Positions 3,267-38,464 of a stretch of 64,000 bases of DNA are shown here, piece after piece. The stretch comes from Nitrospirota bacterium (GTDB lineage: Bacteria > Nitrospirota > Thermodesulfovibrionia > Thermodesulfovibrionales > Dissulfurispiraceae). Made by a program: the position numbers and the translations under genes. The stretch spans positions 32,001-96,000 of the forward strand of contig JBFLWF010000004.1 of the NCBI GenBank assembly GCA_040758355.1. The letters run 5' to 3'. Under the pieces are notes generated by a model that was not told the origin of the DNA, ran no database searches, and saw only the letters and a list, made by a program, of their open reading frames with translations. Position 1 is the first letter of the stretch, and every line of letters begins with the position of its first letter.

Positions 3267-3300
3267 TTGAAATTAAATATAAAGTGTGAGAGGATTGGAG

Positions 3301-4059: not shown

Positions 4060-4218
4060 GGCCTCTGAAGGCCTTTATCTTACAGCACAAGGGGGTGAAT
4101 ATCGAAGAAAAAAGCACGGGGGAATTAGATTAAGGGGTAGCAGTATCTTTTAAACAGTCGGGTAAAAGGAGCAACAAACAGTATCAATAAAAATTGATAC
4201 AAACGGGGAGGCAGAAAA

Positions 4219-5004
4219 ATGAAAGATAATAGTAAAAAGTTAACGACTGCTACAATAATCTTTTTAATGCTTCTAACATTGATCGTTGGAGCAGTTGCTG
4301 TGGATGCAGCAGAGAATAAGACAATCGAGTTGGGCAAGAAGGTCTATGAAAAACGTTGTGTTATCTGCCACGGCCCTAAAGGCGATGGCAAGGGGCTGGT
4401 CGGCATCGTTCACAGGTACCAGAAGAGGGGTGCTGTACAGACTATTTTCCCGAGGGATTTTACAACAGGAGTTTATAGATTCCGCACAACTGCCACAGGT
4501 TGCCTGCCGACAAACGACGATCTTCTGAGAGTTGTAACAGGCGGTATTCCGAGGGCATACATGCCGTCTCATGAGGATGTGCCATTGGATGAAAGGAAAG
4601 CCGTCGCAGAGTATATCAAGACATTTTCAAAAAGGTGGAAAGAGGAAGAAGCGTGCAAGCCTTTTATCGTGAAAGCTCCCAAGTGGGTTGGAAATTCCGA
4701 ATCAACGGATAAAGGTAAAAAATTATACAAAGAGATGAAGTGCTGGGAGTGCCACGGCGAGCACGGCAAGGGTGACGGTCCCAAATCAGACAGGCTGAAA
4801 GACGACTGGGGAGATCCGATACTTCCATTTGATTTTACTACTGGTGCCCTTAAACTGGGGTTTGCTCCCGAAAATGTTTACACAGCATATACAACAGGAC
4901 TCGATGGTTCGGGCATGCCGTCTTATGAGGACTCAATGAGCGAGGAAGATAGATGGCATCTTGTATCGTATACCCTGATATTGATGGGACGCACCAAGAA
5001 ATAA
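4219..5004 (+). CDS. Periplasmic diheme cytochrome c (paralog 2)
   Basis: Signal peptide; CVICH and CWECH; collinear with 3301-4059. Confidence 0.88.
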   Translation: MKDNSKKLTTATIIFLMLLTLIVGAVAVDAAENKTIELGKKVYEKRCVICHGPKGDGKGLVGIVHRYQKRGAVQTIFPRDFTTGVYRFRTTATGCLPTNDDLLRVVTGGIPRAYMPSHEDVPLDERKAVAEYIKTFSKRWKEEEACKPFIVKAPKWVGNSESTDKGKKLYKEMKCWECHGEHGKGDGPKSDRLKDDWGDPILPFDFTTGALKLGFAPENVYTAYTTGLDGSGMPSYEDSMSEEDRWHLVSYTLILMGRTKK

Positions 5005-7018: not shown

Positions 7019-8098
7019 ATGAGAAAAACCATACTATCACTAATATTCCTTTTTGTTTTCATTTACACAGGCATTGGGTACAGTGAGCAATGGAAACTGT
7101 TTGAACATAGATACAGCTATAAATTGGAGGATGTGCTTCAGGCATCGAAATTTGTACAGAAAAAGGGCTACTGGGAAGGTTACAAAGATAATAAACTCGT
7201 AGGTTATGTCTTTATATCCAAGGATTGGACGAGCAAATTGGTCGGTTATGCAGGTAAGCATCTCGAAACGCTTATCGGTATGGATACAAACGGAAACATT
7301 ACGGGCGTAAAACTTCTCTTTCACTCGGAGCCTATAGTCCTGATCGGCCTTAAAGAGGAGCATTATCTGGACTTTATAAAACAATATAAAGGGAAAAACA
7401 TAAAGAGCCCCCTGTCTGTGGGCAGGGAAATATCGATGGATGTCATTACAGGGGCTACGGTTACTGCTGTCGTTCAGAACTCGATAATCCTCGAGAGTGC
7501 GAGAAAGGTTGCCGATGCCACAGGCGTGCTGAAGGTTGCAAAAGGCAAAGGTCGGAAGCTCAGCCAGAAATATGCAGCGCTCACATGGGATGAACTGAAG
7601 AAATCAGGCGCACTTAAAAACATCGTGATAAGGCACAAAGACCTGGGAATCGAAGGCGAAGACCCCTTTCTCGACCTCTATGTCGGAGTTGCGACACAGC
7701 CTTCCATAGGCAGGAGTCTTCTCGGAGATGCTCTCTACAGGGATATCATGGGAAGGCTGAAGAACGGCGAATCTGCGATAGTCATATTTTCAAGAGGGAA
7801 AGGGTCGTTTAAAGGCACCGGATTTGTCCGCGGAGGCGTATTTGACAGATTTAATATTGAACAGGGCGCCAAGGTTCATATGCTGACGGACAAGGATTAC
7901 AGGGTCTTATCCGAACTCCATGCAAAGGGCGCTCCATCTATAGATGAAGGGGGCGTGTTCATTATCAGGGGCAGGGATTTTGATCCGACAGAGCCTTTTA
8001 AATTGAATCTTATACTCCCTTACCGTGTTTCTGTTGCCAAAAAGGAGTTCAAATCTTTTTATACGGAGTACGAGATTCCGGAGAGGTTTTTAGAATAA
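7019..8098 (+). CDS. NosR-like periplasmic FMN-binding protein (N-terminal half of NosR)
   Basis: Signal peptide; GYAGK, HSEPI, flavinylation motif DVITGATVT, SFKGTGFVRGGVFDR. Confidence 0.85.
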   Translation: MRKTILSLIFLFVFIYTGIGYSEQWKLFEHRYSYKLEDVLQASKFVQKKGYWEGYKDNKLVGYVFISKDWTSKLVGYAGKHLETLIGMDTNGNITGVKLLFHSEPIVLIGLKEEHYLDFIKQYKGKNIKSPLSVGREISMDVITGATVTAVVQNSIILESARKVADATGVLKVAKGKGRKLSQKYAALTWDELKKSGALKNIVIRHKDLGIEGEDPFLDLYVGVATQPSIGRSLLGDALYRDIMGRLKNGESAIVIFSRGKGSFKGTGFVRGGVFDRFNIEQGAKVHMLTDKDYRVLSELHAKGAPSIDEGGVFIIRGRDFDPTEPFKLNLILPYRVSVAKKEFKSFYTEYEIPERFLE

Positions 8099-8101
8099 TT
8101 C

Positions 8102-10366
8102 ATGTCATCGTTTAGCAGCTTATTAAAGCATATCTTCGAAGATACAATTGAGACACTGAAAATTATCCCATGGATGCAGATATGGGCGCAGAAATGGGCC
8201 TCGATTGCCGTCTTCGCAATATTCCTGTTCGCATTGATAATGATGATGGTTTTCAAGGACAGGCTTGCTAAAAACAGGAAGGTGCTGAATATAGTCGCTT
8301 ACGGTATACTGCCATTTTCGTTTATATATGTTGGACTCGTACTAAAGGCGCAGCCCACAACAACCAACATCGTTATATTGATCAATGGAATAAAAGAAGG
8401 GTCTTTTCCTTTAGGCCTCTTTATCATGGAGCCGTATATATTCCTGTCATTTCTCTTTATTCTTTTAACCATCCTTTTATGGGGCAGGGGCGTTTTCTGC
8501 GGCTGGCTCTGTCCATATGGTGCAATGGTTGAACTTTTAAATAAACTTTATGATAGGTTTTTCCGCAGATTCAGGTTGAGCCTTCCAGAGAAGATTCACT
8601 GGAAGCTTATTTACCTTAAATATGTAATATTCGCAATCATATTAGGCGTATCTTTCTACAACTTCATGCTTTCCGAATACCTTGCCGAGGTCGAACCCTT
8701 CAAGAGCTTTGTATTGAAACTTCACAGGCAGTGGTATTTTGTCCTTTATTTTATCCTGATAACAGCAGGCTCGGTAATAATATACAGGGCGTACTGTCGC
8801 TACCTCTGTCCCCTCGGCGCTGCTTTGAGCTTACCCTCATTCATTAAGTTGATACCTCTGATAAAACTCAAAAGACATGACACGTGTAGAATATGTAAGA
8901 TATGCGGCAGGAGCGAATGCAATTATCAGGCCATTACACCGCATGGCAATATTAAAGTTACCGAATGCCTTAGCTGTCTTGAATGTCAGATAAACTTCTG
9001 GGATGAGGACAAATGCCCTGCATTGATAAAAAAGAAAAAGGAGGGTCGCTCTACAGTCTTCAGCCTTTTACCGTTTGCTTTTTTAATTATATCTGCAATG
9101 CTATTTGTCCCTTCGCTGACATATGCAAAGGCTATAATTGTAGGGACCGATTATCGCACAATCGGCGATGCCCTGAAAAAGGCTAAAAATGGAGATGTCA
9201 TAGAGGTCAAGGCAGGAGAATACAGGGAGAGGCTTAAGATAGATAAGGCCGTGCATCTTAAGGGTATAAACAACCCTGCAATCATTGAAAGCGGAGGGCT
9301 TATAATCACGATAGCGGGCAGGGGCGTTACTGTAGAAGGGTTTACAATCAGAGACGAAAATCCAACATCCCAGTTAGAGAGCGCCGGGATATATATTTCC
9401 AAAGGTTCCGATGGGGCTGTTATAAAAAACAACCGCCTTTACAGCGTTATGCACGGCGTCTGGAGCGTTAGCGCCAGAGGCATAAGGGTGGAAAACAATT
9501 ACATCGAGAGCAAAAAGGATCTCGATAGGAACTACAGGGGTAATGGAATATATCTCGTAGACAGTCAGGAAGCAACTATTATAGGGAACAGAATGGATCA
9601 CTGCCGGGATGGAATGTACATAGAGGTTTCTCACGACGGGAAAATAATGGGCAATGATGTAACAAACTCCCGTTATGCAGTACACACAATGTGGGTGGAC
9701 AGGGTTGTTTTCTCTAAAAACAGGGCATCAGGCAATCTGGTTGGGTTTGCTATTATGTATTCAAAGCAATCCGAGATTACAGATAATATTGCTGTGGGCA
9801 ACAGCACGCACGGCATCCTTCTGATTCAGACTGTAAGGAGCTACATAGCAAGAAATACAGTAATAGGCAATACCAAAGGGGTCTACTTTTACAACTCGAT
9901 ATTTAACAACTTAGTCTCCAATCTTATAATGAATAATAGTCTTGGCCTGCATAACTGGGGAGGTTCCGAAGACAATGCCGTGAATAAGAATTCCTTTATC
10001 GGCAACGAGGTTCAGGTAAAGTTTGTTGCAGGCAGAAACCAGCAGTGGGATAATAACTACTGGAGCGATTATCTGGGATGGGATATGAACGCCGACGGCA
10101 TCGGCGATATGCCATTCGAATCCAATACAGTGGTTGACCATATCTTATGGAGATACCCTGCTGCCAAGTTGTTGTATGCAAGTCCTTCTTTCCAGTTTCT
10201 CTGGATGCTCGAAAAGCAGTTTCCGGTTCTGAAGGTTCCGAGGGTGTTTGATGCAAAACCATCCATGCTTCCGTTGCACAAAGACTGGAAGGAGTTAAAG
10301 GCCAAATATCCATACGCCCCTGAAAAATACTACGGTGAGATGGAAAAAATCCCTGTTGCCCATTGA
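8102..10366 (+). CDS. nosD: Fusion of NosR C-terminal membrane/4Fe-4S region with NosD
   Basis: GRGVFCGWLCPYG, EVEPFK, CRYLCPLG and CxxCxxC clusters; then beta-helix NosD with RGNGIYL, RYAVHTMW, NYWSDYLGWDMNADGIGD; one uninterrupted ORF. Confidence 0.88.
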   Translation: MSSFSSLLKHIFEDTIETLKIIPWMQIWAQKWASIAVFAIFLFALIMMMVFKDRLAKNRKVLNIVAYGILPFSFIYVGLVLKAQPTTTNIVILINGIKEGSFPLGLFIMEPYIFLSFLFILLTILLWGRGVFCGWLCPYGAMVELLNKLYDRFFRRFRLSLPEKIHWKLIYLKYVIFAIILGVSFYNFMLSEYLAEVEPFKSFVLKLHRQWYFVLYFILITAGSVIIYRAYCRYLCPLGAALSLPSFIKLIPLIKLKRHDTCRICKICGRSECNYQAITPHGNIKVTECLSCLECQINFWDEDKCPALIKKKKEGRSTVFSLLPFAFLIISAMLFVPSLTYAKAIIVGTDYRTIGDALKKAKNGDVIEVKAGEYRERLKIDKAVHLKGINNPAIIESGGLIITIAGRGVTVEGFTIRDENPTSQLESAGIYISKGSDGAVIKNNRLYSVMHGVWSVSARGIRVENNYIESKKDLDRNYRGNGIYLVDSQEATIIGNRMDHCRDGMYIEVSHDGKIMGNDVTNSRYAVHTMWVDRVVFSKNRASGNLVGFAIMYSKQSEITDNIAVGNSTHGILLIQTVRSYIARNTVIGNTKGVYFYNSIFNNLVSNLIMNNSLGLHNWGGSEDNAVNKNSFIGNEVQVKFVAGRNQQWDNNYWSDYLGWDMNADGIGDMPFESNTVVDHILWRYPAAKLLYASPSFQFLWMLEKQFPVLKVPRVFDAKPSMLPLHKDWKELKAKYPYAPEKYYGEMEKIPVAH

Positions 10367-20995: not shown

Positions 20996-21277
20996 ATGAG
21001 GCTGATTTCAGTAATAATTCTGATCGCCCTGAGCCTGTCGGTGATACCGCAGACGGTTGTTATACACCCATATGCCGGCACAGAGACGTCTATTTCGGTG
21101 CTTAATGTCTGCAACGGCTCCGGCACAGGCGTTCTGAGCAGCCTTGATATGCCATTTGTTAATGAATGTCCGTGCAAGCTTGTTCCATCGAGCTTTGCCG
21201 GTTTCCACGATATTCCAAATCCCATATTTAATCGATTCTTGGTAGCCTTTCAAAAAGAGCGCCCCCCTAAAGTCTAA
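20996..21277 (+). CDS. Putative metal-sensing leader/arrest peptide, copy 1
   Basis: Signal-like N-terminus, LNVCN, ECPCK, ends FQKERPPKV; paralog at 26965. Confidence 0.7.
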   Translation: MRLISVIILIALSLSVIPQTVVIHPYAGTETSISVLNVCNGSGTGVLSSLDMPFVNECPCKLVPSSFAGFHDIPNPIFNRFLVAFQKERPPKV

Positions 21278-21436
21278 TCTGTAGTTCCGAAGTTGCGAGT
21301 TGCTTTCATCTTACAGGCATTTCTGTGTCTGTATTTCGGATTGTCCATTAGGACATTCCTCCCCGTTTGACTCGGCTCCACTTCGGGAATCAACGCAAGA
21401 TCATAATCAAAAATTTCTGAAGTGGAGTCTTTTTTT
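21275..21436 (+). ncRNA. Structured cis-regulatory RNA / attenuator, copy 1
   Basis: 120-nt block nearly identical to 27250-27370; 17-bp terminator 21374-21429 plus T7; competing pairing of 21285-21301 with 21369-21388. Confidence 0.7.
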
Positions 21437-21459
21437 AAGATTTATCAGGAGGGTTTATA

Positions 21460-26702: not shown

Positions 26703-26827
26703 TTTGACTTGCGTAATTTATGAATTATAGGCTAAAAGAGGAGAAAATTGCGGCATAAATGTCACAGTGTGTTTGTGCAGGGGAATATGCCTTGCTGAAA
26801 ATAAAGCGTTTTTTCTCTGGTTTTAAT

Positions 26828-26964: not shown

Positions 26965-27252
26965 ATGAAAATTAAAAGCATATTGGTTCTGATTGCTATA
27001 ATTGTCTCAATAGCATCGCCATTTCATCCCGCTGTTTCCTATGCATCAGACAGCAATGGAACAAAGATCTTCACTCTCGATGTATGCAACGCATCGAGCC
27101 CATCCCTGTCCGTAAATGCAGATATGCCGTTCGTTTACGAATGTCCGTGTAAACATATCTCTTTAGGATTTGCCAGCTTTTATGAAGGGTTAAACCCTGT
27201 ATTCAATACATTCCTTGTTGTCTTCCAGAAAGAATATCCTCCGGAAGTATAA
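26965..27252 (+). CDS. Putative metal-sensing leader/arrest peptide, copy 2
   Basis: MKIKSILVL signal, LDVCN, ECPCK, FQKEYPPEV; TTGACA at 26930 and a -10-like box at 26953-26959 just before the ATG. Confidence 0.7.
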   Translation: MKIKSILVLIAIIVSIASPFHPAVSYASDSNGTKIFTLDVCNASSPSLSVNADMPFVYECPCKHISLGFASFYEGLNPVFNTFLVVFQKEYPPEV

Positions 27253-27412
27253 TCTGTAGTTCCGAAGTTGCGAGTTGTTTTTCATCTTACAGGCATTTCT
27301 GTGTCTGTATTTCGGATTGTCCATTAGGACATTCCTCCCCGTTTGACTCGGCTCCACTTCGGGAATCAACTAAATCCATTTAAATTAATTTCTGGGGTGG
27401 AGCCACCTTTTT
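27250..27412 (+). ncRNA. Structured cis-regulatory RNA / attenuator, copy 2
   Basis: Same block as 21275-21394; 17-bp stem 27350-27404 with pairing-preserving changes, then a T-run. Confidence 0.7.
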
Positions 27413-27437: not shown

Positions 27438-29525
27438 ATGAGGTGTTTTCTATTGATATTATTATCTGTAGTGCTTTCTTGCAGCATTGTATTTGCAGAA
27501 GAAGCAAAGAAGCTTGAGGAAGTTGTTGTAACCGCAACGAGGACCGAGAGAACAACGGAAGAAATTCCAGCAGGCGTAAGCGTTGTGACAAAAGAGGATA
27601 TAAAAGACATGAGGATGTTCGGAGTAAGAGAGGCGCTTACAGGCATTGCGGGCGTACAGTCAGAGACAAAGAACGGAGGCTATGATGCGCGACTGATAAT
27701 AAGGGGCGCAGGCCTTAAGGCGAGATACGGCATAAGAGAGATCATGGTACTCCTTGACGGTGTTCCTCTCACAGATCCGGATGGCATGACAAATCTTGAT
27801 CGTGTCGACACCCAGCTTGTTGACAGGGTTGATGTTGTGAAAGGGCCAAATTCGACTCTTTACGGCGCAAATGCAGCAGGCGGCGTTATCAACATCATTA
27901 CCAAAAACCCATTTGAAGAAATAAAAAGCGTAAAAATCGGTTACGGCAGCGACAATACGCAGTTGTATAACCTGATTTACGGGACAAGTTTTGGCGGAAA
28001 AACTTATATCACGCTTTCCGGAAGCAGGCGCTCAACCGATTCATGGAGGGCATGGAATGAGTTCAGCACCAATCAGGCAGGCTTGAAACTCGGACACATG
28101 TTTGATGACAAAACCCTGCTTGAGGCGAACATCAGTTATACAAAGTCCGATTTTCAGCTACCGGGCGTGCTTACAAAGCCACAGTTTGACAGCGATATCA
28201 CACAGCTTACCAGCGAGAGGTGGAGACATTCCGGCAGGTACAGCGAGGTATTAAATACAAGCCTGAAGTTTGAAAAAGAGATTGGCAATGTGAAACTGAA
28301 GCCTCTTGCCTATTTCCAGTCATGGCATCATTACCATCCGGTTACGGCATTTATCAATGACGGAGGAGCAAATGTCTATGGCGCGGATATTCAGCTTGAC
28401 ATAAAGCACAAGATAGCAGGCATGGAAGGGGTGCTGACAGCAGGAATTACAGGACAGATAGATGAGGCGAGCGGAGATAAATATACTTATAGGGATGTGT
28501 TTCCATCTACCGCAAGATATCCTTCCACAGCAACCCTTGAGTATACCCTTTCCGATGAAAAGGATGCGCTTGCTGAAAAGAGCAGCGATACTACAACGAA
28601 GTGGGGTATTTATCTTCAGGAATCAATAAGGCCGTCTGATAAATGGATAATAGACCTCGGAGTGAGATACGACGAGGTGGGTTTTGATATCAGTACGGAC
28701 ACTTATATAAAGTATCGCTATGCCCCTCCTGGCGCTCCTAACAGGTATTATGCGAGCACAGAGACAATCAGAAGAGATAAGACTTTTGACTATGTGAGTC
28801 CGAGAGCAGGTGTTGTTTATAAGCTGAGCAAGATTTTTAATCTCTACGGCAATATTTCGACAGGGTTTCAGACTCCACAGTCATCTGAACTCAGCACCAG
28901 TTCAGACCTGAATCCTTCCGTGACTACCAATTACGAGGCAGGAGTAAAGGCAAGGTTTGACGGAGGACACAGTTTTGACCTTTCCCTATTTCATGCAATA
29001 GTGGATGACGAGATCGTGCAGATAAGGCAGCCTGACACCAGCACGACCTACAGCAATGCAGGCGAAACAAGAAAGAGGGGTGTTGAATTATCGGGCAGGG
29101 CGCAGGTATTAAAAGGTCTTTTCCTCGGGGGCTCTTATACATACAGCGATTTTAAATTTGTGAAGTTTACAGAGGTAATAAGCGGCGTCAACAGGAGCAG
29201 GGATGACAACAGATACCCTTATATCCCGATGCATCAATACAGCCTGTATGCTTACTACAAACACCCATCAGGCTTCAAGTTCAAGGTCGATACCTACACA
29301 TGGGGGAAATATTTTGTGGACAATGCAAACTCCGATACTTATAAAGGATATACATTCCTTACAAATGCCCTTATCGGATATGAGATGAAGAATTTTGATA
29401 TAACCTTTGATGTAAACAATGTCTTTGACAAGAGGTATGCCATGGAGGTGACAAAGGAGACAGACTTGAAATATCGGCCTGGAGCGCCTATGTCAATGAT
29501 GGGAAGGATAACATATAAATTTTAA
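27438..29525 (+). CDS. TonB-dependent outer-membrane receptor
   Basis: TonB box EEVVVTA, plug VVKGPNSTLYGANAAGGVINIIT, NVFDKRY, C-terminal F. Confidence 0.93.
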   Translation: MRCFLLILLSVVLSCSIVFAEEAKKLEEVVVTATRTERTTEEIPAGVSVVTKEDIKDMRMFGVREALTGIAGVQSETKNGGYDARLIIRGAGLKARYGIREIMVLLDGVPLTDPDGMTNLDRVDTQLVDRVDVVKGPNSTLYGANAAGGVINIITKNPFEEIKSVKIGYGSDNTQLYNLIYGTSFGGKTYITLSGSRRSTDSWRAWNEFSTNQAGLKLGHMFDDKTLLEANISYTKSDFQLPGVLTKPQFDSDITQLTSERWRHSGRYSEVLNTSLKFEKEIGNVKLKPLAYFQSWHHYHPVTAFINDGGANVYGADIQLDIKHKIAGMEGVLTAGITGQIDEASGDKYTYRDVFPSTARYPSTATLEYTLSDEKDALAEKSSDTTTKWGIYLQESIRPSDKWIIDLGVRYDEVGFDISTDTYIKYRYAPPGAPNRYYASTETIRRDKTFDYVSPRAGVVYKLSKIFNLYGNISTGFQTPQSSELSTSSDLNPSVTTNYEAGVKARFDGGHSFDLSLFHAIVDDEIVQIRQPDTSTTYSNAGETRKRGVELSGRAQVLKGLFLGGSYTYSDFKFVKFTEVISGVNRSRDDNRYPYIPMHQYSLYAYYKHPSGFKFKVDTYTWGKYFVDNANSDTYKGYTFLTNALIGYEMKNFDITFDVNNVFDKRYAMEVTKETDLKYRPGAPMSMMGRITYKF

Positions 29526-29528
29526 AAA

Positions 29529-29566
29529 GGGGGATTCAGTAAGGGGGACAAAGTCCCCCTTACTGA
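29529..29566. repeat. Short palindromic element (family also at 29629, 31745, 38595, 63481)
   Basis: GGGGGATTC prefix, then TCAGTAAGGGGGAC-AAA-GTCCCCCTTACTGA. Confidence 0.65.
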
Positions 29567-29568
29567 TT

Positions 29569-30603
29569 ATGGAAATGCGATTCTTTTTGAGTTTAGTTGT
29601 AGTTTTAATTGCAGTGGTCAATTCTGAAGGAAATTTCGGAAGGGGGACAAAGTCCCCCTTCCGTGCAGAGGCTATGTTCCTCTCCGAAAATCCTCCTGCC
29701 GGACATTCAGGCGGCCATAAAGAGCACAGGGGTGGAGAAAGAAGCGATAGGAAAAGCGGGCAAAGAGGCGGCGAACATTCGGAGCACAGGGCTGCGCCCG
29801 TAAAAAAGTTTTATCTCAATATTCATGACCTTTCTGACAGCGCAAAGGCTTATGTCCTGCGGCCTGATGGCTCAATAACAGAAGGCAGATTAAGCCATGA
29901 CGAAGGCGCATGGAGCGTTACATTCGATACAAAACCGATGGACGGCTCGATGGATGGGGTTTTTAATGTCTATGTAGTGGACAAGCAGGTTTCCGACGGA
30001 ACGCTCCTTATCAGGGTTGCAAAGATGAATGCAATAAACCATAGCTGCGGATGGGGACATAAGTACAAATTCGATAAGGAAAGGCAGAGGCCGAAACATC
30101 TTGATTCAATACCGCTTGAGATAGTAGGTCATGACCTGTGGAACAGCTACTTTCATACGCAGACAATGTCAGGCGATAAATTTGTTTTTTCTGTGTTGCA
30201 TAACGGAAAGCCTGTCAGTGCCTCTGTTAAAGTGCGGACTCAGAGCGGATGGATGAAGATGTTCAAGACCGATGACGACGGCAAGGGTTCATTCCAGCTT
30301 ATAAGGGATTATTACCCTGAAAAGTGGAATGATTTCAAGGCAAGGAAGAGGAGCGGTTTCGTAATCACGGCAGAGTATGAGGCCGATGAAAAAGGCATGT
30401 ATGAAGGCAAGAGCTATAACAGGATCAAGCTTGTAACGACCATTCCATGGAGATACCAGCCCCAGCGCAGTGAATATACATCTTACGCATATGGTCTGGG
30501 AATAGCAGTTGCCTTTGCTATTGCCGGAGGTCTTGCTGTTTATATTCACCGTGAGAGGCGCAAGAGGCCTTACAGAGAGGTAAGGTTTAATGAGAAGAAT
30601 TAG
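29569..30603 (+). CDS. Periplasmic His-rich DUF4198-like protein with C-terminal membrane anchor
   Basis: Signal peptide, GHSGGHKEH...EHSEH, HSCGWGH, PLEI...NGKP...TDDDGK, C-terminal TM. Confidence 0.6.
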   Translation: MEMRFFLSLVVVLIAVVNSEGNFGRGTKSPFRAEAMFLSENPPAGHSGGHKEHRGGERSDRKSGQRGGEHSEHRAAPVKKFYLNIHDLSDSAKAYVLRPDGSITEGRLSHDEGAWSVTFDTKPMDGSMDGVFNVYVVDKQVSDGTLLIRVAKMNAINHSCGWGHKYKFDKERQRPKHLDSIPLEIVGHDLWNSYFHTQTMSGDKFVFSVLHNGKPVSASVKVRTQSGWMKMFKTDDDGKGSFQLIRDYYPEKWNDFKARKRSGFVITAEYEADEKGMYEGKSYNRIKLVTTIPWRYQPQRSEYTSYAYGLGIAVAFAIAGGLAVYIHRERRKRPYREVRFNEKN

Positions 30604-31582
30604 GGAGTTTATCTATAGCGCAGACATAAATCGCTTCAGGATTTACTTCCAAGTATTCGCTTTCGGACTGCTCATATACGGAGGCTATCTGGCCATTGAT
30701 ATAAGCACAAACCTCCCGACCTTTGCCTGTCCTTTTGTAGGAAACAGCAGGGGAGGAACCTGCTATCTGTATCCGCTTCAACATCAGGTCAATATGCCTT
30801 TTGCACAGTTTATAGGCGGAAGGGGCATCGCCTTTTTGACAGGGCTTATAACGTTTGTGCTTCTGTTCATGCTTTTCAACAAGGCGTGGTGCGGGTTTGC
30901 ATGTCCCCTCGGCACAATTCAGGACTGGATAACAAAGCTGCGGAGCAAGCTCGGCACAAGATACAGCACATACCCTGAAGGCACATTTAACGGGCTGAAA
31001 AAAATAAAGTATATACTTCTTGCTCTACTCATTCTGTTGACGCTGGGCATGAGCAACGCTGTCCCGGGTATTGGGAAACTCTCCGAGGACTTCATGACTC
31101 CTTACTGTATGCTATGTCCAGGAAGGACAGTGCTTCCGATTTTCAATGGGGACATAAAACAACTCGTTGTGGATTTCAGTTCAAAGACAAAGCTTACCCT
31201 CACAGCGCTCGGCATGGCCGTTACAGGGACTTTTTTTGTGGGGGCGTTCGTTAAAAAACGCTTTTTCTGTTTTTTCTGTCCAATGAGCGCACTGCATTAC
31301 ATATTTTCGAAGGCTGGACTTTTGAGACTGATTAAGGACGGCTCAAAGTGTACGAAATGCGGCAACTGCTACAGGGTCTGCGATGTGGGGATAAAAGAGA
31401 TAGCGGATGACGTGGTCAGCAAAAACATAGTGAAGGATGACTGCATGATGTGTTTTAAATGCGTTGCAGCTTGCCCTGAGGAGAAGTGTCTTGATGTGAA
31501 ATTTTTAGGTTTGCCTGTTTATCGCTCTACAGAGCAGGGCTTTTTCAAAAGAATGGAGGGAAAAGTTAAAAATGGAAATTGA
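30590..31582 (+). CDS. NapH/MauN-like membrane 4Fe-4S protein
   Basis: CGFACP, CMLCP, CFFCP and two CxxCxxCxxxC. Confidence 0.85.
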   Translation: MRRIREFIYSADINRFRIYFQVFAFGLLIYGGYLAIDISTNLPTFACPFVGNSRGGTCYLYPLQHQVNMPFAQFIGGRGIAFLTGLITFVLLFMLFNKAWCGFACPLGTIQDWITKLRSKLGTRYSTYPEGTFNGLKKIKYILLALLILLTLGMSNAVPGIGKLSEDFMTPYCMLCPGRTVLPIFNGDIKQLVVDFSSKTKLTLTALGMAVTGTFFVGAFVKKRFFCFFCPMSALHYIFSKAGLLRLIKDGSKCTKCGNCYRVCDVGIKEIADDVVSKNIVKDDCMMCFKCVAACPEEKCLDVKFLGLPVYRSTEQGFFKRMEGKVKNGN

Positions 31583-32888
31583 AAGACTCGAAAGAATAAA
31601 AAAGACAACTGCGGTTCATCTCGCAATGGAGGCAAAGGATGCCCTGAAAAAGATAACAGAGGATTTCCCGGATAATCCTGATGCAATGGAATACTTTTAT
31701 TCCCTGCTTCATAAGTTTTATACAGATGGCGAGCTTTTTAAAGAGGGGGTTCGTGGGGTAGACAAAGTCTCCACCACGCTCATAGGAACGATGTGCATTC
31801 AGGTTCCTGAAGAGCTTATCTATGCAGCAGGAGCAAGACCGATAAGATTATGCAGCGGCGCTTACGCATATGATCAGACAGGCGCTGAATTCATGCCTGC
31901 GAAGTCATGCTCTCTGGTTAAGGCAACACTGGGGATGCTGAATATCAAAAATATGCCTTTCAAGGATTCATTGAGCGCCATAATAGTCTCTACAACCTGC
32001 GACCAGAAGAAAAAGGCGGCGGATATGCTAAAAGAAATGGGCTATAAGACATATACGCTCGAAATGCCTTCGGTAAAAGATACCGAGGAGGCGCGCTTTT
32101 ACTGGCAGAACTCGGTAAAGAATTTTGCATCTGCGATTGAGGATATATCCGGAAACAGGATTACAAAAAAAGGATTGAACGAAGCAGTGATGAAGACTAA
32201 CAGGGCAAGGGCTGAATTCAGGAGATTCAATAACTTCAGGAAGAGCGCACATCCGCTTATATACGGAAAAGACTCATTTGTTGTAGCCAATGCCTACTTC
32301 TTTGACGGCATCGAACAATGGACAGAGGCGCTTGCAAAACTCAACGCCGAACTCGAAGATAGAGACAATAGAGGGGTATCGGTTGCTAATAGGCATGCGC
32401 CGAGGATTTTGTTTACCGGCTCTCCTGCGATATTTCCAAATCTCAAGCTTCCTCTGCTTATAGAGCAGTCGGGCGGGGTTATCGTTGCCGATGAGGTATG
32501 CTCTTCTTCAAGGCTTCTGTATGACTCTGTGAGCTTCGATGAAGGCAATCTCTATGACATGATCCCTGCCATCGCAGACAGATATTTAAAGCCGTGCACC
32601 TGCCCATGTTTTGCGGAAAATGAAGACAGGAAGAGGAAACTGCTCGAAATGGTAAGAGGCTTTAATGTTGACGGCGTTGTGTATCAGGCATTTTCAGGAT
32701 GTCATCTATACGAGATGGAGCATAAGTCTGTAGGAAAATTGCTTGAAGCAGAAGGGGTTCCGATGCTCTATATAGAGACCGATTACAGCCCTGAAGATAC
32801 CGGACAGTTGTCCACGAGGATTGAGGCGTTCATGGAGTCTATTAAAAACAGGAAGAGAAGTAAATTGCAAGGAGGATGTGACAGGTGA
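31572..32888 (+). CDS. 2-hydroxyacyl-CoA dehydratase-family protein, double-cubane-cluster (DCCP)-like
   Basis: GTMCIQVPEELIYAAG, RLC, SC, TTCDQKKK, EVC, CTCPC, GCH, IETDYS, TRIEAF. Confidence 0.8.
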   Translation: MEIERLERIKKTTAVHLAMEAKDALKKITEDFPDNPDAMEYFYSLLHKFYTDGELFKEGVRGVDKVSTTLIGTMCIQVPEELIYAAGARPIRLCSGAYAYDQTGAEFMPAKSCSLVKATLGMLNIKNMPFKDSLSAIIVSTTCDQKKKAADMLKEMGYKTYTLEMPSVKDTEEARFYWQNSVKNFASAIEDISGNRITKKGLNEAVMKTNRARAEFRRFNNFRKSAHPLIYGKDSFVVANAYFFDGIEQWTEALAKLNAELEDRDNRGVSVANRHAPRILFTGSPAIFPNLKLPLLIEQSGGVIVADEVCSSSRLLYDSVSFDEGNLYDMIPAIADRYLKPCTCPCFAENEDRKRKLLEMVRGFNVDGVVYQAFSGCHLYEMEHKSVGKLLEAEGVPMLYIETDYSPEDTGQLSTRIEAFMESIKNRKRSKLQGGCDR

Positions 32889-33700
32889 AATATTTTGCCG
32901 GCATTGATATAGGCTCTACAGCAATAAAGATAGTCCTGATAGACGAATCAGGGGACATAGTTGCACACCAGACTTCCCCTACAGGCAGCCATTTCCATAA
33001 GAACACGCTGGACAGTTTCCATATGCTGCTTGAAAGGACAGGCACAAAAAAAGAAGACGTAGCCTATATCACATCCACCGGTTACGGCAGGAAGCTTTTT
33101 AAAGAGGCTGATGAGTCCATAAGTGAGATAACCGCAAATGCCGCAGGCGCCAGAATTATCGGAAAAGATTACGGAGCGGTGCGGACAATCATCAATATAG
33201 GAGGACAGGACTCAAAGGTGATACTCATCGATGATGCAGGCCATGTAAAAAACTTTACAATGAATGACAAGTGTGCCGCAGGCACAGGAAGATTCCTTGA
33301 AATGACTGCGAGGAATTTAGGTGTGGAGGTTGATGAACTGGGGACAATGCACCTGAACGCAAAAGATATTCCCTTAACCATCAACAGCACCTGCACTGTC
33401 TTTGCCGAATCAGAGATAATAAGCCTTTTGGCAAACGGACATGAAAGGGAGGAGATTATAGCAGGAGTTCACTATTCCATTGCAAGGAGGATAGTGCGCC
33501 TTGCAAAGCGGATAGGCATTGAAGACATGGTCTTTTTTGACGGCGGCCCGGCTATGAACAGGGGGCTTGTTGCAGCCATGGAAGACGAGTTGATGAGAAG
33601 TATCATAGTGCCTGAGATACCCCAAATTACCACTGCACTCGGTGCAGCAGTCATTGCCAGAGAAGCTTTTCTTGCAGAAGGAGAGAAGGTTCATGCATGA
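32885..33700 (+). CDS. BadF/BadG/BcrA/BcrD-type ATP-dependent activator/reductase
   Basis: GIDIGST, TGYGR, IGGQDSK, MNDKCAAGTGRFLE, STCTVFAESE. Confidence 0.92.
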   Translation: MKYFAGIDIGSTAIKIVLIDESGDIVAHQTSPTGSHFHKNTLDSFHMLLERTGTKKEDVAYITSTGYGRKLFKEADESISEITANAAGARIIGKDYGAVRTIINIGGQDSKVILIDDAGHVKNFTMNDKCAAGTGRFLEMTARNLGVEVDELGTMHLNAKDIPLTINSTCTVFAESEIISLLANGHEREEIIAGVHYSIARRIVRLAKRIGIEDMVFFDGGPAMNRGLVAAMEDELMRSIIVPEIPQITTALGAAVIAREAFLAEGEKVHA

Positions 33701-34304
33701 TGCAGCAGGTCTGTTTTTATTAGGACTGCTTTACGGGACAACCGTCTGCAGCCTCACATGCCTGCCCTATCTCGGCCCTTATCTTTTAAGCACCGGCAGG
33801 GGATTTACGGACGGCATGAAATCATCGCTTTTGTTTCTGTCAGGAAAACTGATCTGTTATATGTTTATAGGAGGACTTTCCGCATATCTCGGGAACGTCC
33901 TGATGCTTGACAAAAGCATGTCTGCAAAATTGATTATGGGCATAGCAATTATTGCCTTCGGCCTCTCCATCCCTTTTGTGAGCAGGGGAGAATGTTGCAA
34001 TAAAAGGCAGGTTATGGGTAAAAACATTTCTCTGTTTCTGGTAGGCATATCTACAAGCCTTATACCATGCCCTCCGCTTGTTACAATGTTTCTGCTCGCT
34101 GCAAAGAACGGCTCTTTAATCTCCGGGATCTCTTATGGCCTGATTTATGGATTGGGATTAACCATTTCTCCGCTTATTATTGCAGGCGGGGGATTATCTG
34201 TAATTTCAAAAATTATCAAGACAGAGGTCAAGGGCTTTGTACCATATCTGCAGGGCATCTCTGTAGTGATGATAGTGATAATGGGTGCAAGAATACTTAT
34301 TTAG
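33693..34304 (+). CDS. DsbD_2/UreH-like membrane protein
   Basis: CSLTCLP, IPCPP, six TMs. Confidence 0.7.
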   Translation: MHDAAGLFLLGLLYGTTVCSLTCLPYLGPYLLSTGRGFTDGMKSSLLFLSGKLICYMFIGGLSAYLGNVLMLDKSMSAKLIMGIAIIAFGLSIPFVSRGECCNKRQVMGKNISLFLVGISTSLIPCPPLVTMFLLAAKNGSLISGISYGLIYGLGLTISPLIIAGGGLSVISKIIKTEVKGFVPYLQGISVVMIVIMGARILI

Positions 34305-34320
34305 GAGGTTTGTATAAAAA

Positions 34321-34764
34321 ATGGAATGGCTTAACAGTATAGTCGATTATGGTGTGATAGGGTTTCTGACCCTATTGAGCATTGTAGCAATTGCTATAGC
34401 AGTTGAACGGCGTCTTGTCTACAAAAACATCAGGCTTGAGGATTTCTCCGACAAAAAGGAACTTGAGCTTGCTCTTACGAAAAAGCTGCATATAATAGCC
34501 ACAATCGGCAGCAATGCGCCGTATATTGGTTTGCTCGGAACCGTGTTGGGGATTATGGTCACCTTCTACACTATGGGGCAGGAAGGCTTTATGGCAACAG
34601 GAAAGATAATGCTGGGCCTTGCCCTTGCATTGAAGGCAACTGCAGTTGGTCTGCTTGTTGCGATACCTGCTGTTACGATTTACAACTTTCTTTTAAGGAG
34701 AGTGAAGGTGCTCATGATGCAGTGGGAGATAAAGTTTGCAAAGGAGGAGGAAAAATCCCAATAA
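34321..34764 (+). CDS. exbB: ExbB
   Basis: ATIGSNAPYIGLLGTVLGIM, LKATAVGL. Confidence 0.92.
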   Translation: MEWLNSIVDYGVIGFLTLLSIVAIAIAVERRLVYKNIRLEDFSDKKELELALTKKLHIIATIGSNAPYIGLLGTVLGIMVTFYTMGQEGFMATGKIMLGLALALKATAVGLLVAIPAVTIYNFLLRRVKVLMMQWEIKFAKEEEKSQ

Positions 34765-34877
34765 CCAATCTTCAAAATAACAAATAAATTCTAAATGTCA
34801 AATTCTAATAATCAAACATTTGGAGTTTGGAGTTTATTTGGATTTTGTGATTTGTAGTTTGGGATTTGTTTTTAGAT

Positions 34878-35258
34878 ATGGAAGATAAAGAGTTTGATTA
34901 TATGAATGTCATCCCACTCGTGGATGTGATGCTTGTGCTCCTCACCATCGTGCTTACAACATCCACATTTATAGCCACAGGGGTTATCCCTGTTGAACTG
35001 CCAAAGGCATCAAAGGGCAGCGAGGAGACGTTAAAGACATTGACTATAGAGATAGACAAAAGGGGCGTTATATACCTGAATTCAAGGATTGTGTCAATTA
35101 ATGATATAAGGGAAAACATGAAGTCAATGGACAAATCCACGCCAATATTAATAAGGGCTGACAGGGATATTGCCCTTCAGGTCTTTGTAAATGTGCTCGA
35201 TGTCGTGAAAAACCTCGGATTTAAGAGGGTCAGCCTTCAGACAGAGGAGAGGAGATGA
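34878..35258 (+). CDS. exbD: ExbD
   Basis: MNVIPLVDVMLVLL, LPKA, IRAD. Confidence 0.92.
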   Translation: MEDKEFDYMNVIPLVDVMLVLLTIVLTTSTFIATGVIPVELPKASKGSEETLKTLTIEIDKRGVIYLNSRIVSINDIRENMKSMDKSTPILIRADRDIALQVFVNVLDVVKNLGFKRVSLQTEERR

Positions 35259-35962
35259 CCCATCAATCTAAGGGATTACGGTTCTCCCTTATTCTCCATG
35301 CAGTGGTGATTGCATTTATCATCGCTTTCAGCAGCTCCATTGTACCGATAAACAAACCCATTGTTATCGACTTTAATATAGAGGATTCAGCCGATGCACC
35401 AAAAAAAAGCTCAAAGGAACTGCCTGCTCCTAAACCTGCAGTCAGAAGCCAGAAGCCTGAGGTCAAGGAACAGAAAAAAGAAATAGAAAAACCAGCTCCG
35501 GTAGCTGACGTGCATCCCACTCCGATAACAGAGTCTCAGGTGCCGATTCCTTCGGTTCAGCCACGCACCGAGCAAGTTGTTGCTAAAAATGAAGGACATA
35601 CCGCTGTATCTTCAAGAACAGACGCTTCTTCTGGCAGTAAAAAAGATACCGATGCAGTTGGAAATTCGGAAGAGAAGGCGAGGATGAGATATCTCAAGGA
35701 GCATTTTGGATATATAAGGGACACAATAATGAAGAATCTCTCTTACCCGCACATGGCAAGGAGGATGGGTTGGGAAGGCAGGGTGACAGTATCTTTTATT
35801 GTCTATGAAAGCGGACATGTGGAGAATATAAAAATATTAGAGAGTTCAGGATTTGGAGTACTTGATAAAAACGCAATGGAGACCATAAAAAGGGTGTGTC
35901 CGCTTCCCAAACCGCCTGTCAGGGCGGAATTGATAATGCCTATAGTGTACAGGTTGGAGTAA
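35255..35962 (+). CDS. tonB: TonB
   Basis: N-terminal TM SLILH, Pro/Lys linker, YPHMARRMGWEG, SSGFGVLD. Confidence 0.9.
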   Translation: MTHQSKGLRFSLILHAVVIAFIIAFSSSIVPINKPIVIDFNIEDSADAPKKSSKELPAPKPAVRSQKPEVKEQKKEIEKPAPVADVHPTPITESQVPIPSVQPRTEQVVAKNEGHTAVSSRTDASSGSKKDTDAVGNSEEKARMRYLKEHFGYIRDTIMKNLSYPHMARRMGWEGRVTVSFIVYESGHVENIKILESSGFGVLDKNAMETIKRVCPLPKPPVRAELIMPIVYRLE

Positions 35963-35981
35963 GGAAATGGTATAATTATAA

Positions 35982-37880
35982 ATGACATTCCACAAAAAAC
36001 TTACGAGACTCGACCTTACTCTAAAGGTCAGTATCTTAATAATCGTAATCGTACTTTCCACAAGCACTGTCCTGAACCTCGTATTTAGAGATTTTTTCAA
36101 GAATTATAGCATGGATGCCGTCTATCAGCATATCGTGTTTTTCTCAAGGACCGAAGGCAGACACTATGGTCACCACATCCTTGATGGGAACATCAAGATA
36201 ATACATAAGCACATACTGGATAACATATTGGCCCATAAAAACATCAATAATATCCACGTATACGACAGAGATGGCTGCCTGATCGTTGACAGATCTGGTT
36301 TAAAAAGAGAGAGACCCACTGATAAATGGATACAGGATTGTCTCAAATCTATGACAACGGTAAATAGGTTTGAGGGTTATCTTTTCAGGCACTTTGAGCC
36401 GATGACAGTTGAGGGGAAGGTAGCAGGCTTCCTGTATATAGAATTTAATGCTGATTTTCTGCTGACTGTACTGGCAAAGGGTAGAAACTTTTTTATTTAT
36501 ATGACAGGCATCCTAATATTGATTTTCGTATCGATAGGCGTGGTCATTTCAAAGAGGCTGATATCGCCGCTGATAGACATTACAGAGGCATCAAAGAGGG
36601 TTGCAGAAGGAGATCTTTCTGTATCTGTCCCTGTGAAAGCAAGGGATGAGCGAGGCATCCTGTCCGAAAACTTCAATCTGATGGTGAATAGACTGAAAGA
36701 AGCGCAGGCAGAGATTACAAACTATGCCAGAAATCTTGAGCATGTAGTAGAGCTGCGTACAGAGCGATTGAATAGTGCATTAAAGGAATTGCGGGAGGGG
36801 AAGGAATTCATTGAGAGGATATTCTCCACTGTCGGTGCATTGATTGTTGTTCTAAATGCAGAGGGAAGGATTGTTATGTTTAACAGGGAATGCGAGGATG
36901 TTACAGGATTCGGAGAGGATGAAGCGAAGGGGAAATATGTCTGGGACTTCCTCCTGCCAGAAAGATTCATCGCTCCTGTAATGGCGGTGTTTGCTGATCT
37001 GACAAACCAGAAATTACCCAATTCCCTTGAAAACCCATGGCTGACAAAAGACGGCAAAGAAAGGAATATACTCTGGAATAATACAGTTATCCCCGATGAA
37101 AATGGACAGATCAGATATGTTATCGGAACAGGCATCGACATCACAGAGAAAAAACTCATGGAAGAATACCTGATGGAATCCCAGAGATTGCGGTCAATAG
37201 CCACGCTTATAACAGGACTATCGCACAATTTCAATAATATACTCGTTGGCGTGCTTGGTTATGCAGGGCTGTTAAAGATGAAAATCGCATCTGGCGATAT
37301 TACTGACGCCGCGAAATATATCAAGATAATCGAGAGCTCTGCGGAAAAGGCATCAGATCTCATAAGACACCTTATGCTCTTCTCAAAAAAAGCAGAATAC
37401 GAGGTAAGAGAGATAAGTCTTAATGATGTTGTTAATGATGTCTTGAAAATAATTGCCCATTCATTTCTTTCATCCATCTCCATTAAAACCAACCTTCAGG
37501 AAGAACTTTATAAGATTAATGCCGACAGAAATAAGATACAGCAGGTCATCCTGAACATATGTCTCAATGCCAGGGATGCAATGCCCGAAGGCGGTGTATT
37601 AGAGATAGAGATATTCAATGAGGAGGTCTCAGAGGATATATTGCCGGTTAAGAAGGGCAGATATGCTGTCATAAGGATAAGCGACACAGGATGCGGCATG
37701 GATGAGGAGACAAAAGCGAGGATGTACGAGCCTTTCTTTACCACAAAAGGGCTGCTTGAGCACTTAGGCATGGGGCTTTCAATAGCATACAGCATTATTA
37801 AAGACCACAACGGCCATATCAGTGTTGACACCGAAATGGGCAGGGGAACGACCTTTAAAATCTATTTGCCGGCAGCATAG
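35982..37880 (+). CDS. HAMP-PAS sensor histidine kinase
   Basis: Two TMs, HAMP, PAS, SHNFNN, NARDAM, DTGCGM, PFFTTK. Confidence 0.9.
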   Translation: MTFHKKLTRLDLTLKVSILIIVIVLSTSTVLNLVFRDFFKNYSMDAVYQHIVFFSRTEGRHYGHHILDGNIKIIHKHILDNILAHKNINNIHVYDRDGCLIVDRSGLKRERPTDKWIQDCLKSMTTVNRFEGYLFRHFEPMTVEGKVAGFLYIEFNADFLLTVLAKGRNFFIYMTGILILIFVSIGVVISKRLISPLIDITEASKRVAEGDLSVSVPVKARDERGILSENFNLMVNRLKEAQAEITNYARNLEHVVELRTERLNSALKELREGKEFIERIFSTVGALIVVLNAEGRIVMFNRECEDVTGFGEDEAKGKYVWDFLLPERFIAPVMAVFADLTNQKLPNSLENPWLTKDGKERNILWNNTVIPDENGQIRYVIGTGIDITEKKLMEEYLMESQRLRSIATLITGLSHNFNNILVGVLGYAGLLKMKIASGDITDAAKYIKIIESSAEKASDLIRHLMLFSKKAEYEVREISLNDVVNDVLKIIAHSFLSSISIKTNLQEELYKINADRNKIQQVILNICLNARDAMPEGGVLEIEIFNEEVSEDILPVKKGRYAVIRISDTGCGMDEETKARMYEPFFTTKGLLEHLGMGLSIAYSIIKDHNGHISVDTEMGRGTTFKIYLPAA

Positions 37881-37967: not shown

Positions 37968-38032
37968 ACATATATTAAAATAAATAAAGTTATATGCTGG
38001 TTGCGGCATTATTGCCCCAAAATGTAGACTAA

Positions 38033-38464
38033 ATGTCCCTTATGAAACTTTTATATATCGCATTATCGTTGCTACTCCTCATATCATGCTCAAGGCAGCC
38101 TGTCTATCCGGTGCCTGCCATAGAGGGCACGGATATAGTTATAGATGCAGGGACGCTCGAGCCGGATATCCCAAAATTCTATACGTATCATTACCGTAAT
38201 AAGAATATAAACTTCTTTGTTATCAAGATAAACGGTAAAATCCTCTCGTTCCTCGATGCATGTATAAATTGTTATCCTGCAAAACTCGGGTACAGGTTTG
38301 ACAGCGGGTACATAATTTGCAAAAGATGTAGCGTGAGATATTCGGTATCCGAGGTAGAGAAGGGATTTGGCGGTTGCTTCCCGATTCGTATTTCAGGTCA
38401 TCTTAAAGGCAGCAAATACCTCATCCCTGTTTCAGTGCTCCAGAGAGAGTCTGGCAAGTTCTGA
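38033..38464 (+). CDS. DUF2318-like Fe-S/metal-binding lipoprotein
   Basis: Lipobox ISC; DACINC, ICKRC, GGCFP. Confidence 0.75.
   Translation: MSLMKLLYIALSLLLLISCSRQPVYPVPAIEGTDIVIDAGTLEPDIPKFYTYHYRNKNINFFVIKINGKILSFLDACINCYPAKLGYRFDSGYIICKRCSVRYSVSEVEKGFGGCFPIRISGHLKGSKYLIPVSVLQRESGKF

Follow-up and report, generated by a model that had tools for sequence, protein, structure and literature searches.

The stretch analysed here, called the window, is 64,000 nucleotides of DNA from a Nitrospirota bacterium of the family Dissulfurispiraceae (GenBank assembly GCA_040758355.1, contig JBFLWF010000004.1, positions 32,001 to 96,000 of the forward strand), and it carries a nine-gene operon in which the genes of a TonB-dependent uptake system enclose those of a double-cubane cluster protein (DCCP) and its ATPase, DCCP-R. 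All coordinates below are window positions. The nine genes, listed in a preliminary description of the sequence, are all open reading frames (ORFs) on the + strand and are tightly packed: a TonB-dependent receptor of 695 amino acids (aa) with PF00593 and Plug domains (27438..29525), a periplasmic DUF4198-fold protein of 344 aa with a C-terminal membrane anchor, placed by a weak Pfam match and a fold search (29569..30603), a membrane Fe-S protein of the NapH/CcoG/NosR type of 330 aa with Fer4_5 and 4Fe-4S dicluster matches in Pfam (30590..31582), the DCCP of 438 aa, matched by HGD-D and NF040772 (31572..32888), DCCP-R, an archerase-type ASKHA ATPase of 271 aa matched by BcrAD_BadFG and TIGR00241 (32885..33700), a DsbD_2-family protein with six transmembrane (TM) helices, matched by Pfam DsbD_2 (33693..34304), exbB (34321..34764; TIGR02805 at 160 bits, cut-off 135), exbD, matched in Pfam (34878..35258), and tonB, with a TonB_C domain (35255..35962). 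Successive gaps are 43, -14, -11, -4, -8, 16, 101 and -4 nt, so that five of the eight junctions overlap, bearing out an earlier remark on overlapping genes. The DsbD_2 gene probably starts at ATG 33693 and exbD probably at ATG 34878, both corrected from the first reading; an in-frame TTG for exbD also lies at 34866. A Pfam scan of the 54 window ORFs found no CoA-transferase or fermentation family, as had been claimed.

The fourth and fifth genes, earlier described as a Cys-rich protein of the dehydratase family and a BcrAD-type ATPase resembling the Carboxydothermus pair, encode a DCCP and DCCP-R, on which the seven-Cys motif, the family model NF040772 and the structure agree. Aligned with the Carboxydothermus hydrogenoformans DCCP (PDB 6ENO), a comparison the preliminary description had proposed, the seven cysteines match one-to-one (C75, C94, C113, C143, C310, C344 and C377; spacings 18/18/29/166/33/32). 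The motif as printed, CX19CX18-19CX29CX166-170CX32-34CX32C (PMC7317905), failed as a literal pattern on the window protein because its first spacing, 18, is one short of the printed 19; the aligned 6ENO chain also has a first spacing of 18. All seven cysteines are kept in 67 of 67 full-length DCCP relatives, and K146, R314 and Y380 are conserved as well. The window protein scored 370.6 bits against NF040772 (cut-off 350) and the eight relatives tested all scored 350-371, the more distant L003 and L216 falling below the cut-off (L numbers denote loci and G numbers genomes of our set). Compared with PDB sequences, it matched 7YYL/6ENO with an E-value of 1e-69 and BzdN, HadC and MbdN with 1e-26 or worse. 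Its AlphaFold model, with a predicted local distance difference test score (pLDDT) of 88.6, aligned with 6ENO from residue 9/12 at Z 49.7 and a root-mean-square deviation (rmsd) of 1.9 Å over 408 residues with 33% identity, compared with Z 40-42 for HadC/BzdN, and has helices at 2-30 and 37-52. Because the motif, NF040772 and the structure concur, the protein is a true DCCP and not an acyl-CoA dehydratase: it groups apart from the true acyl-CoA dehydratases and has the full set of DCCP ligands. The DCCP-R gene overlaps the DCCP gene and its product has conserved cluster cysteines, Cys130 and Cys170, although the HadI model gives it a higher score than DCCP-R does. Neither protein has a predicted export signal or membrane helix, and the genome holds one DCCP.

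The characterized Carboxydothermus proteins (PDB 6ENO, 7YYL, 7YZM) share with the window pair the seven-Cys motif, a single subunit whose gene precedes that of an ASKHA [4Fe-4S] ATPase, and a predicted N-terminal extension, but the window protein and its closest relatives have C-x-C344-P in place of C344-x-C, a glutamine at Q145 and no CPY Cys128. In Carboxydothermus, DCCP-R is reported to use ATP hydrolysis to reduce a cluster beyond the reach of dithionite and Ti(III) (PMC7317905, PMC9351452). The window DCCP is also homologous in fold to BzdN of class I benzoyl-CoA reductase (PDB 8S02; Z 41.9), in which the [8Fe-9S] cluster is described as an ATP-charged electron store and not the active site (PMC11971306). 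BzdN is the heterodimer partner of the catalytic BzdO and serves a CoA-ester substrate, whereas the window encodes no second subunit.

The gene two places upstream of the DCCP gene was earlier taken to encode a His-rich anchored periplasmic protein, and its 344-aa product does contain 14 His and hydrophobic helices at the N- and C-termini, a signal helix and a C-terminal anchor. Its DUF4198 Pfam score of 23 bits is below the cut-off of 34 and a PDB sequence search with a DUF4198-like alignment gave no match, so that the fold search alone placed it: the best match of the model (pLDDT 85.8) was Zcp, with Z 17.6, ahead of a Ni-bound DUF4198 protein with 14.5, and the next match was at 7.2. In 42 aligned relatives, H158-x-C160-x-x-G-H164 and H196 are invariant. 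Zcp, a DUF4198-family protein (PDB 9MHI-9MHN), has the same fold (rmsd 2.8 Å over 196 residues) and is also periplasmic, but the window protein is membrane-anchored, and its invariant residues are H-x-C-x-x-G-H plus a His, as compared with the His29/His31/His142 triad of Zcp. Zcp is further described as monocistronic and Zur-regulated, unlike the window protein, and as a Zn-binding protein that in vitro takes up Co, Ni and Cu as well (PMC12663993).

The membrane Fe-S protein has four predicted TM helices, C101xxxC105P and C227xxC230P motifs, and two [4Fe-4S] motifs (C254-C295). With topology assigned from hydropathy and the positive-inside rule, these CxxxCP/CxxCP and [4Fe-4S] motifs lie on the predicted cytoplasmic side, and the invariant C47, C58, C173 and C176 lie on predicted periplasmic loops, on the same side as the near-invariant H65; the four cysteines are also kept in the seven divergent or variant relatives aligned. 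The NapH models scored low (TIGR02163, 69 bits against 213; NF007013, 67 against 234), and Pfam found no FixG_C domain, the CcoG C-terminus, in the protein, which may work like NapH/CcoG despite missing their cut-offs. It clusters with the C-terminal domain of the window's NosR. CcoG, NapH and NosR share with it the Fer4_5 CxxxCP motifs and the C-terminal 2x[4Fe-4S] domain; the four invariant periplasmic-loop cysteines are extra to the window protein. Downstream of DCCP-R, the DsbD_2 protein has conserved C19xxxC23, C101 and C126 and is a candidate thiol-lined metal carrier or thiol relay.

The closest solved relative of the TonB-dependent receptor is YncD/PqqU. The clade of the window receptor conserves His298-x-His300, His324 and His609 and has no conserved Cys, and the OprC copper-receptor model TIGR01778 was not among the best 25 families listed for the window receptor, while a second receptor in L093 passes that model (803 bits, cut-off 472). 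nosZ is present in 3 of 9 genomes with the window receptor clade, compared with a baseline of 21/201. Receptors of this clade, 64-67% identical to that of the window, also occur in an operon devoid of a DCCP gene (L204-L206 in G452, G348 and G022; L041 in G202 is also listed), in which a leader ORF, the receptor, a YHS protein (in two of the three), a Fer4_5 protein, exbB-exbD-tonB and an FtrD-like gene adjoin nap or nos-accessory genes. This operon is possibly an ATP-free alternative.

The preliminary description had called for a survey of operon conservation. Across the phylum, 44 of 401 genomes had a DCCP match; five, including the window's own, had at least 57% identity, the others no more than about 35%. 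Compared with the window were the four other close loci, 16 of 39 ordinary DCCP loci chosen for long contigs, the best 80 of 480 metagenomic loci and three genome loci, the last being the yield of a genome-contig search with the DCCP protein alone; the breadth of the set comes from metagenome contigs and genome searches. Genes were called with hidden Markov model guidance, merging at 95% identity left 73 subfamily and 15 ordinary DCCP loci, and only loci with enough flank were counted. Gene order proved nearly fixed. A NapH-like gene stands immediately before the DCCP gene in 62 of 63 subfamily loci (0/14 ordinary loci) and a DUF4198-fold gene before that in 54 of 54 (0/13), DCCP-R follows in 60/61 (14/15), and a DsbD_2 gene comes next in 53/55 (0/14). 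A TonB receptor lies within eight genes in 30 of 33 subfamily loci as against 1 of 11 ordinary ones, and tonB/exb genes are near the cassette in 23 of the 33. The link to a membrane Fe-S protein, a periplasmic metal-binding protein, DsbD_2 and TonB import thus sets the subfamily apart from ordinary DCCP loci. In a tree built by a quick method and midpoint-rooted, without 6ENO or YjiM rows, the subfamily is set off from ordinary DCCPs by a long branch with a value of 100 in the Shimodaira-Hasegawa-like approximate likelihood ratio test, and C342-x-C344-P and Q145 form its signature. These results confirm that a DCCP subfamily with a fixed membrane partner exists, is conserved and is linked to TonB-dependent uptake, and we hold it very likely that the members of the cassette act as one functional system.

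Carriers include Spirochaetia, Desulfobulbaceae, Rhodocyclaceae, Ca. Loosdrechtia and Gammaproteobacteria, with locus G+C of 35-67%; the DCCP of L001 is 82% identical to that of the window. No subfamily member was found in four other genomes of the window's own genus, and distribution is therefore patchy. A search with the membrane protein only matched 11 of 401 genomes in another phylum, that of G469, and in ten of ten newly fetched loci the DCCP gene lay beside the membrane protein gene (one cut by a contig end and one split), with a receptor in eight of the ten and DCCP identity down to 31%. Among these loci, L236 (G597) has its DCCP gene in two ORFs, and L230 (G711) and L232 (G528) have no DCCP-R after the DCCP in the fetched stretch. 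The cultured Sulfurovum mangrovi ST1-3 has a variant in which a DUF4198-like domain is fused to a second Fer4_5 protein. The clusters retrieved from the ESM Atlas had either no name or an automatic one. Ordinary DCCP-DCCP-R pairs of the window's own phylum (L038-L053) are often followed by rhodanese or YedF-like genes, consistent with the reported Se/S link.

The transcription unit probably begins ahead of the receptor, with a leader ORF of 95 aa on the + strand (26965..27252), which has a signal/TM helix, an invariant L-[DN]-V-C and Pro-Pro near the C-terminus, and a 17-bp hairpin with a U-run (27350..27412, + strand, hairpin 27350-27404) that is a candidate attenuator or terminator between leader and receptor. 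The hairpin fold has z = -4.2, none of 200 shuffles being as stable, and a similar hairpin follows other leaders, with changed stems in L034 and L080. Rfam has no family for it: window positions 19000-40000 gave a chance sraA match only and 14 loci gave nothing. Its sequence makes the leader a candidate for stalling, built along the lines of CruR but with one invariant Cys only and [RY]PP 50-52 residues later; the window leader lacks CXXC and RAPP, and thus the CXXC placed 45 residues before RAPP that marks CruR, and Pfam returned no match for it, PF11162 (DUF2946) included. A paralogue at 20996-21277 heads a P1B-ATPase operon, and the two leaders are followed by about 100 nearly identical nt (within 21278-21450 and 27253-27412) ending in a terminator-like hairpin. 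Leaders of the window type occur in 63 of 201 genomes of the class at the head of metal- and sulfur-handling operons, and with the hairpin probably represent a lineage-specific attenuator. Among the 40 regions listed, such leaders precede NosL-like, SCO, CopD and FtrD genes.

A palindrome of the RegA/PrrA type, GCG[AG]C-N5-G[CT]CGC, occurs in 10 of 43 upstream regions (shuffle mean 0.28, maximum 2 in 100) and in 7 of 116 control upstream regions, several of which share one intergenic stretch; RegA-like genes adjoin L093 and L101 at 194 and 164 bits, below the cut-off of 250. No RegA-type box with a 3-nt centre was found 5' of the window leader or of ten Nitrospirota-type leaders. Look-alike palindromes with a 4-nt centre, noticed post hoc, stand at 26749-26766, 5' of the leader, and at 38002-38019, 5' of an FtrD-like gene; two of the five genome-wide matches at one mismatch fall in the window locus. 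The 43 upstream regions contained no Fur or NikR box and 0-1 Zur-like matches by E. coli-type consensus, and no enrichment of CueR, ModE or Irr boxes, likewise by consensus. With a permissive threshold, 9 FNR boxes were counted, compared with 4 in a single shuffle, a sigma-70 promoter scan was at chance (21 against 23), and Rfam found no riboswitch, cobalamin type included, in 14 loci.

At its other end, the unit may extend past tonB to a histidine kinase gene, after a 19-nt gap, and an FtrD-like Fe-S protein gene recognized by Pfam (38033..38464, + strand), which in several relatives (L062, L080, L204, L205) directly follows tonB without the histidine kinase gene inserted in the window. Upstream, Pfam matches mark a P1B-ATPase operon with a second DsbD_2 gene and, about 20 kb from the operon to its nosZ, a clade I nosZ cluster with NosR, NosD, NosL and SCO genes. 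NosR is split (7019-10366), its N-terminal part being a 359-aa gene and its C-terminal Fe-S part being fused to NosD in a 754-aa ORF. Directly 5' of the TAT-type nosZ, an ExtP-like cytochrome b gene and three c-type cytochrome genes (245-5004) form a clade II-like electron-supply module before a clade I enzyme. A YeeE/YedE sulfur transporter gene lies at 58498-59373 (Pfam). Elsewhere in the genome (G000), contig C10 carries at about 68000-79600 (L214) a run of CbiMNQO-type transporter, TonB receptor, MotA-like, DUF2149-like and 1350-aa CobN-sized genes, a separate Co/Ni-type uptake locus, and contig C14 carries two adjoining BcrAD-type ATPase domains (35027-36772) with no DCCP match beside them.

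Given these parts, a tentative reading, to which we give slightly less than an even chance, is that the five-gene cassette (DUF4198-fold, NapH-type, DCCP, DCCP-R and DsbD_2) behind TonB receptors is an ATP-driven device for reductive metal release, with copper the most likely metal here. The receptor would bring a tightly bound metal complex into the periplasm, where the DUF4198-fold protein would hold it at its His/Cys site. At the cost of ATP, DCCP-R would charge the [8Fe-9S] cluster with electrons of very low potential. The cluster would act as an electron store as in BzdN, and the electrons would pass through the cytoplasmic [4Fe-4S] pair and the Cys motifs of the membrane protein to a periplasmic Cys4/His site that would reduce the metal or its ligand. 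DsbD_2 would then carry the freed soft ion or relay thiol electrons, and in the window's genome the customer would be NosZ, supplied by way of the neighbouring genes for the P1B ATPase, NosL and SCO. An outward wire of this kind is suggested by the fixed neighbour of the DCCP, with its predicted cytoplasmic ferredoxin domain and periplasmic cysteines and its place beside a TonB receptor and an anchored metal-binding protein, and we regard flow from cytoplasm to periplasm as an even bet or slightly less. By position and analogy, the wire may be likened to the PepSY reductases described for CrtA operons (PMC12914433) and to CcoG, reported as a cupric reductase (PMC8267372). The preliminary description had already proposed that low-potential electrons release metal from an imported chelate, and this part of it stands as the reading we also favour, at the same tentative strength. 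That a dedicated membrane wire exports nitrogenase-grade electrons in order to break inert TonB-imported complexes, such as sulfide-, thiolate- or macrocycle-bound copper, is a more doubtful extension, under which the cassette would be a hitherto undescribed kind of machine for nutrient uptake.

Service in metal acquisition is in our judgement probable, and for copper as the metal in the window's clade the chances seem evenly balanced. Copper markers accompany 13 of 46 non-redundant long-flank loci (Csp1 in 4, PCuAC in 4, leaders with CXXC...R[AG]PP in 5, OprC in 1). The 45 residues that separate CXXC from RAPP in L111 and L120 equal the distance given for the copper sensor CruR (PMC9426467), and a CruR-type leader heads the cassette gene run in the proteobacterial versions L099, L111, L117 and L120; L109 also has a leader. 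The Bordetella cruR-crtA-PepSY operon, as described (PMC9426467, PMC12914433), shares a leader, a TonB receptor and then a putative membrane reductase, but its redox part is a PepSY_TM protein, where the cassette has the DCCP chain, and the window receptor is closer to YncD/PqqU. A crude motif scan of the window's genome found a copper site in NosZ only; its sole COX1-family gene has the NorB-type HLWVE motif. The RegA-type boxes of relatives, and the lack of Fur and NikR boxes and of riboswitches, also count towards copper, which is the best-supported cargo.

Several observations weigh against reductive copper release. Cu(II)/Cu(I) reduction normally needs no such low potentials. Most of the copper markers come from proteobacterial loci that are related to one another, so these markers are not independent, and the receptors beside the cassette fall into 11 groups at 35% identity with one recognized copper receptor. 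The window receptor clade also serves the operon without DCCP (G348, G452, G022), with its YHS protein and another Fer4_5 protein. The leader family is not a clean copper marker, since among the regions listed it also precedes split-Soret cytochromes, rhodaneses, TusA/YedF, ThiF and CbiM/NikR loci, thus heading sulfur/selenium-transfer operons too. The HSCxxGH motif is missing from the Sulfurovum variant and from divergent relatives, whose DCCP identity is 31-40%; some of the divergent relatives adjoin ABC-permease genes and two adjoin classical DUF4198 genes. Neither nosZ nor a COX1-family gene was found in carriers G469, G711, G582 and G468, and carrier G467 has no nosZ and a weak match in the NOR range only (completeness not given for any of the five). 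CobN/MotA/DUF2149 genes flank 4 of the 46 loci. A CobN-like chelatase, MotA and DUF2149 stand beside the cassette in L099, L105, L114, L117 and L118, two of them under CruR-type leaders, which puts a chelatase-like module in what looks like a copper-regulated setting. An enrichment of heme-copper oxidases in the phylum of G469 was set aside as too weak (3 of 5 close carriers, of which two of the three are near kin, against 52/251).

The interchangeable receptors, those CobN/MotA/DUF2149 loci, Cys/Met-metabolism genes in three loci and rhodanese genes in two, the classical DUF4198 genes beside divergent relatives, and the carriers devoid of evident copper enzymes would all suit a cassette that handles another scarce element, be it Ni, Co or Fe from a tetrapyrrole or chelate, or a S/Se compound, with specificity set by the receptor. 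For selenium, high-scoring DCCPs are reported to co-occur with SelD (bioRxiv 10.1101/2022.07.06.499078). Of 10 carriers tested, 9 have SelD; since 95 of 101 genomes in the class have it too, this co-occurrence is uninformative and was rejected as a selenium test. With no cobalamin riboswitch in the 14 loci, no Fur/NikR box (by E. coli-type consensus only) and CruR-type leaders in two of the four CobN loci, another element seems to us rather unlikely. To much the same degree we doubt a reversed flow, in which the NapH-like protein feeds DCCP-R and the DCCP is the catalyst, cleaving or reducing an imported small ligand or a metal-sulfur/organometal species in the cytoplasm after import by DsbD_2. 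NapH proper is a quinol dehydrogenase, which speaks for this direction, but electron transfer from quinol to DCCP-R is uphill, and the four invariant cysteines on predicted periplasmic loops would be needless for a purely cytoplasm-facing donor. The conserved K146, R314 and Y380 fit a catalyst, as does the start of the 6ENO alignment at residue 9 of the model, taken as the channel-closing N-terminal extension of class I, and the Carboxydothermus DCCP is reported to be catalytic in vitro (PMC7317905).

The conserved membrane Cys of DsbD_2, the clustering of the membrane Fe-S protein with the window's NosR C-terminal domain, and the RegA-type redox boxes could also indicate that, much like DsbD, the cassette provides low-potential electrons for maturing metalloenzymes or for periplasmic thiols (thiol reduction having been named in the preliminary description too), as is thought for NosR/NosZ, with the receptors merely co-regulated. 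Thiol reduction needs no ATP-driven potentials, however, and the conserved core lacks a thioredoxin-like partner while receptor linkage holds in 30 of 33 loci, which makes this improbable. Still less likely is that, as part of the nos locus, the DCCP acts on N2O, which the preliminary description had put forward as a speculation, or on azide or another small gas of this kind. The operon is about 20 kb from nosZ, azide is reduced by DCCP in vitro according to PMC9351452, and nosZ is present in both of the class sample's carriers, the baseline being 21/201; but a gas needs no TonB receptor, and N2O is an unlikely substrate because nosZ, nosD, nosL and copA homologues are absent from the flanks of the 46 non-redundant loci, nosZ is present in only 4 of 13 tested carrier genomes (G000, G187, G007, G555), and the DCCP is cytoplasmic, with no export signal, whereas NosZ is exported. 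The nearness of nos more plausibly reflects the provision of copper for NosZ, and NosZ as the copper customer fits this genome. Least probable, and rejected, is that the pair is a common activase and subunit of a 2-hydroxyacyl-CoA dehydratase or benzoyl-CoA reductase that happens to lie near transport genes: the Pfam HGD-D and BcrAD_BadFG matches and the better score of the ATPase against HadI would allow it, but the genome holds a single subunit, the 54 window ORFs scanned include no CoA-transferase, synteny is fixed, the seven Cys persist in 67/67 relatives, the DCCP falls far below the family cut-offs (HadC, 107 bits against 700; BzdN, TIGR03190, 103 against 454), and its model resembles DCCP at Z 49 as against 40-42 for HadC/BzdN.

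Reductive metal release by the membrane-coupled cassette remains the reading that we prefer, and the subfamily is apparently undescribed: no description of the cassette was found in the literature searched, most subscription papers lying outside that search, and the supplements of bioRxiv 10.1101/2022.07.06.499078 and PMC7317905 could list cassette proteins. The former, a comparative study of DCCP neighbourhoods, describes an SAO locus with adjacent double-cubane proteins and so shares an earlier comparative-genomic tie of DCCPs to metal-related uptake, but that locus has an ABC importer and selenoproteins and belongs to anaerobic fermenters, and the term TonB is absent from the main text of the study.

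Through the cassette, which occurs in several phyla, the question of DCCP function acquires a concrete genomic setting and a set of partners, and the variant of Sulfurovum mangrovi ST1-3 makes a cultured carrier available. We know of no counterpart to an ATP-driven export of very-low-potential electrons for nutrient uptake. If the electron-export reading is true, a homodimeric DCCP would for the first time have a physiological role, and the cassette would provide N2O-reducing and microaerophilic bacteria with a route to copper that is locked away. Copper limitation raises N2O emission in anoxic, sulfidic habitats, and if the cargo is copper, the cassette would bear on NosZ metallation in the N2O reducers that live there.

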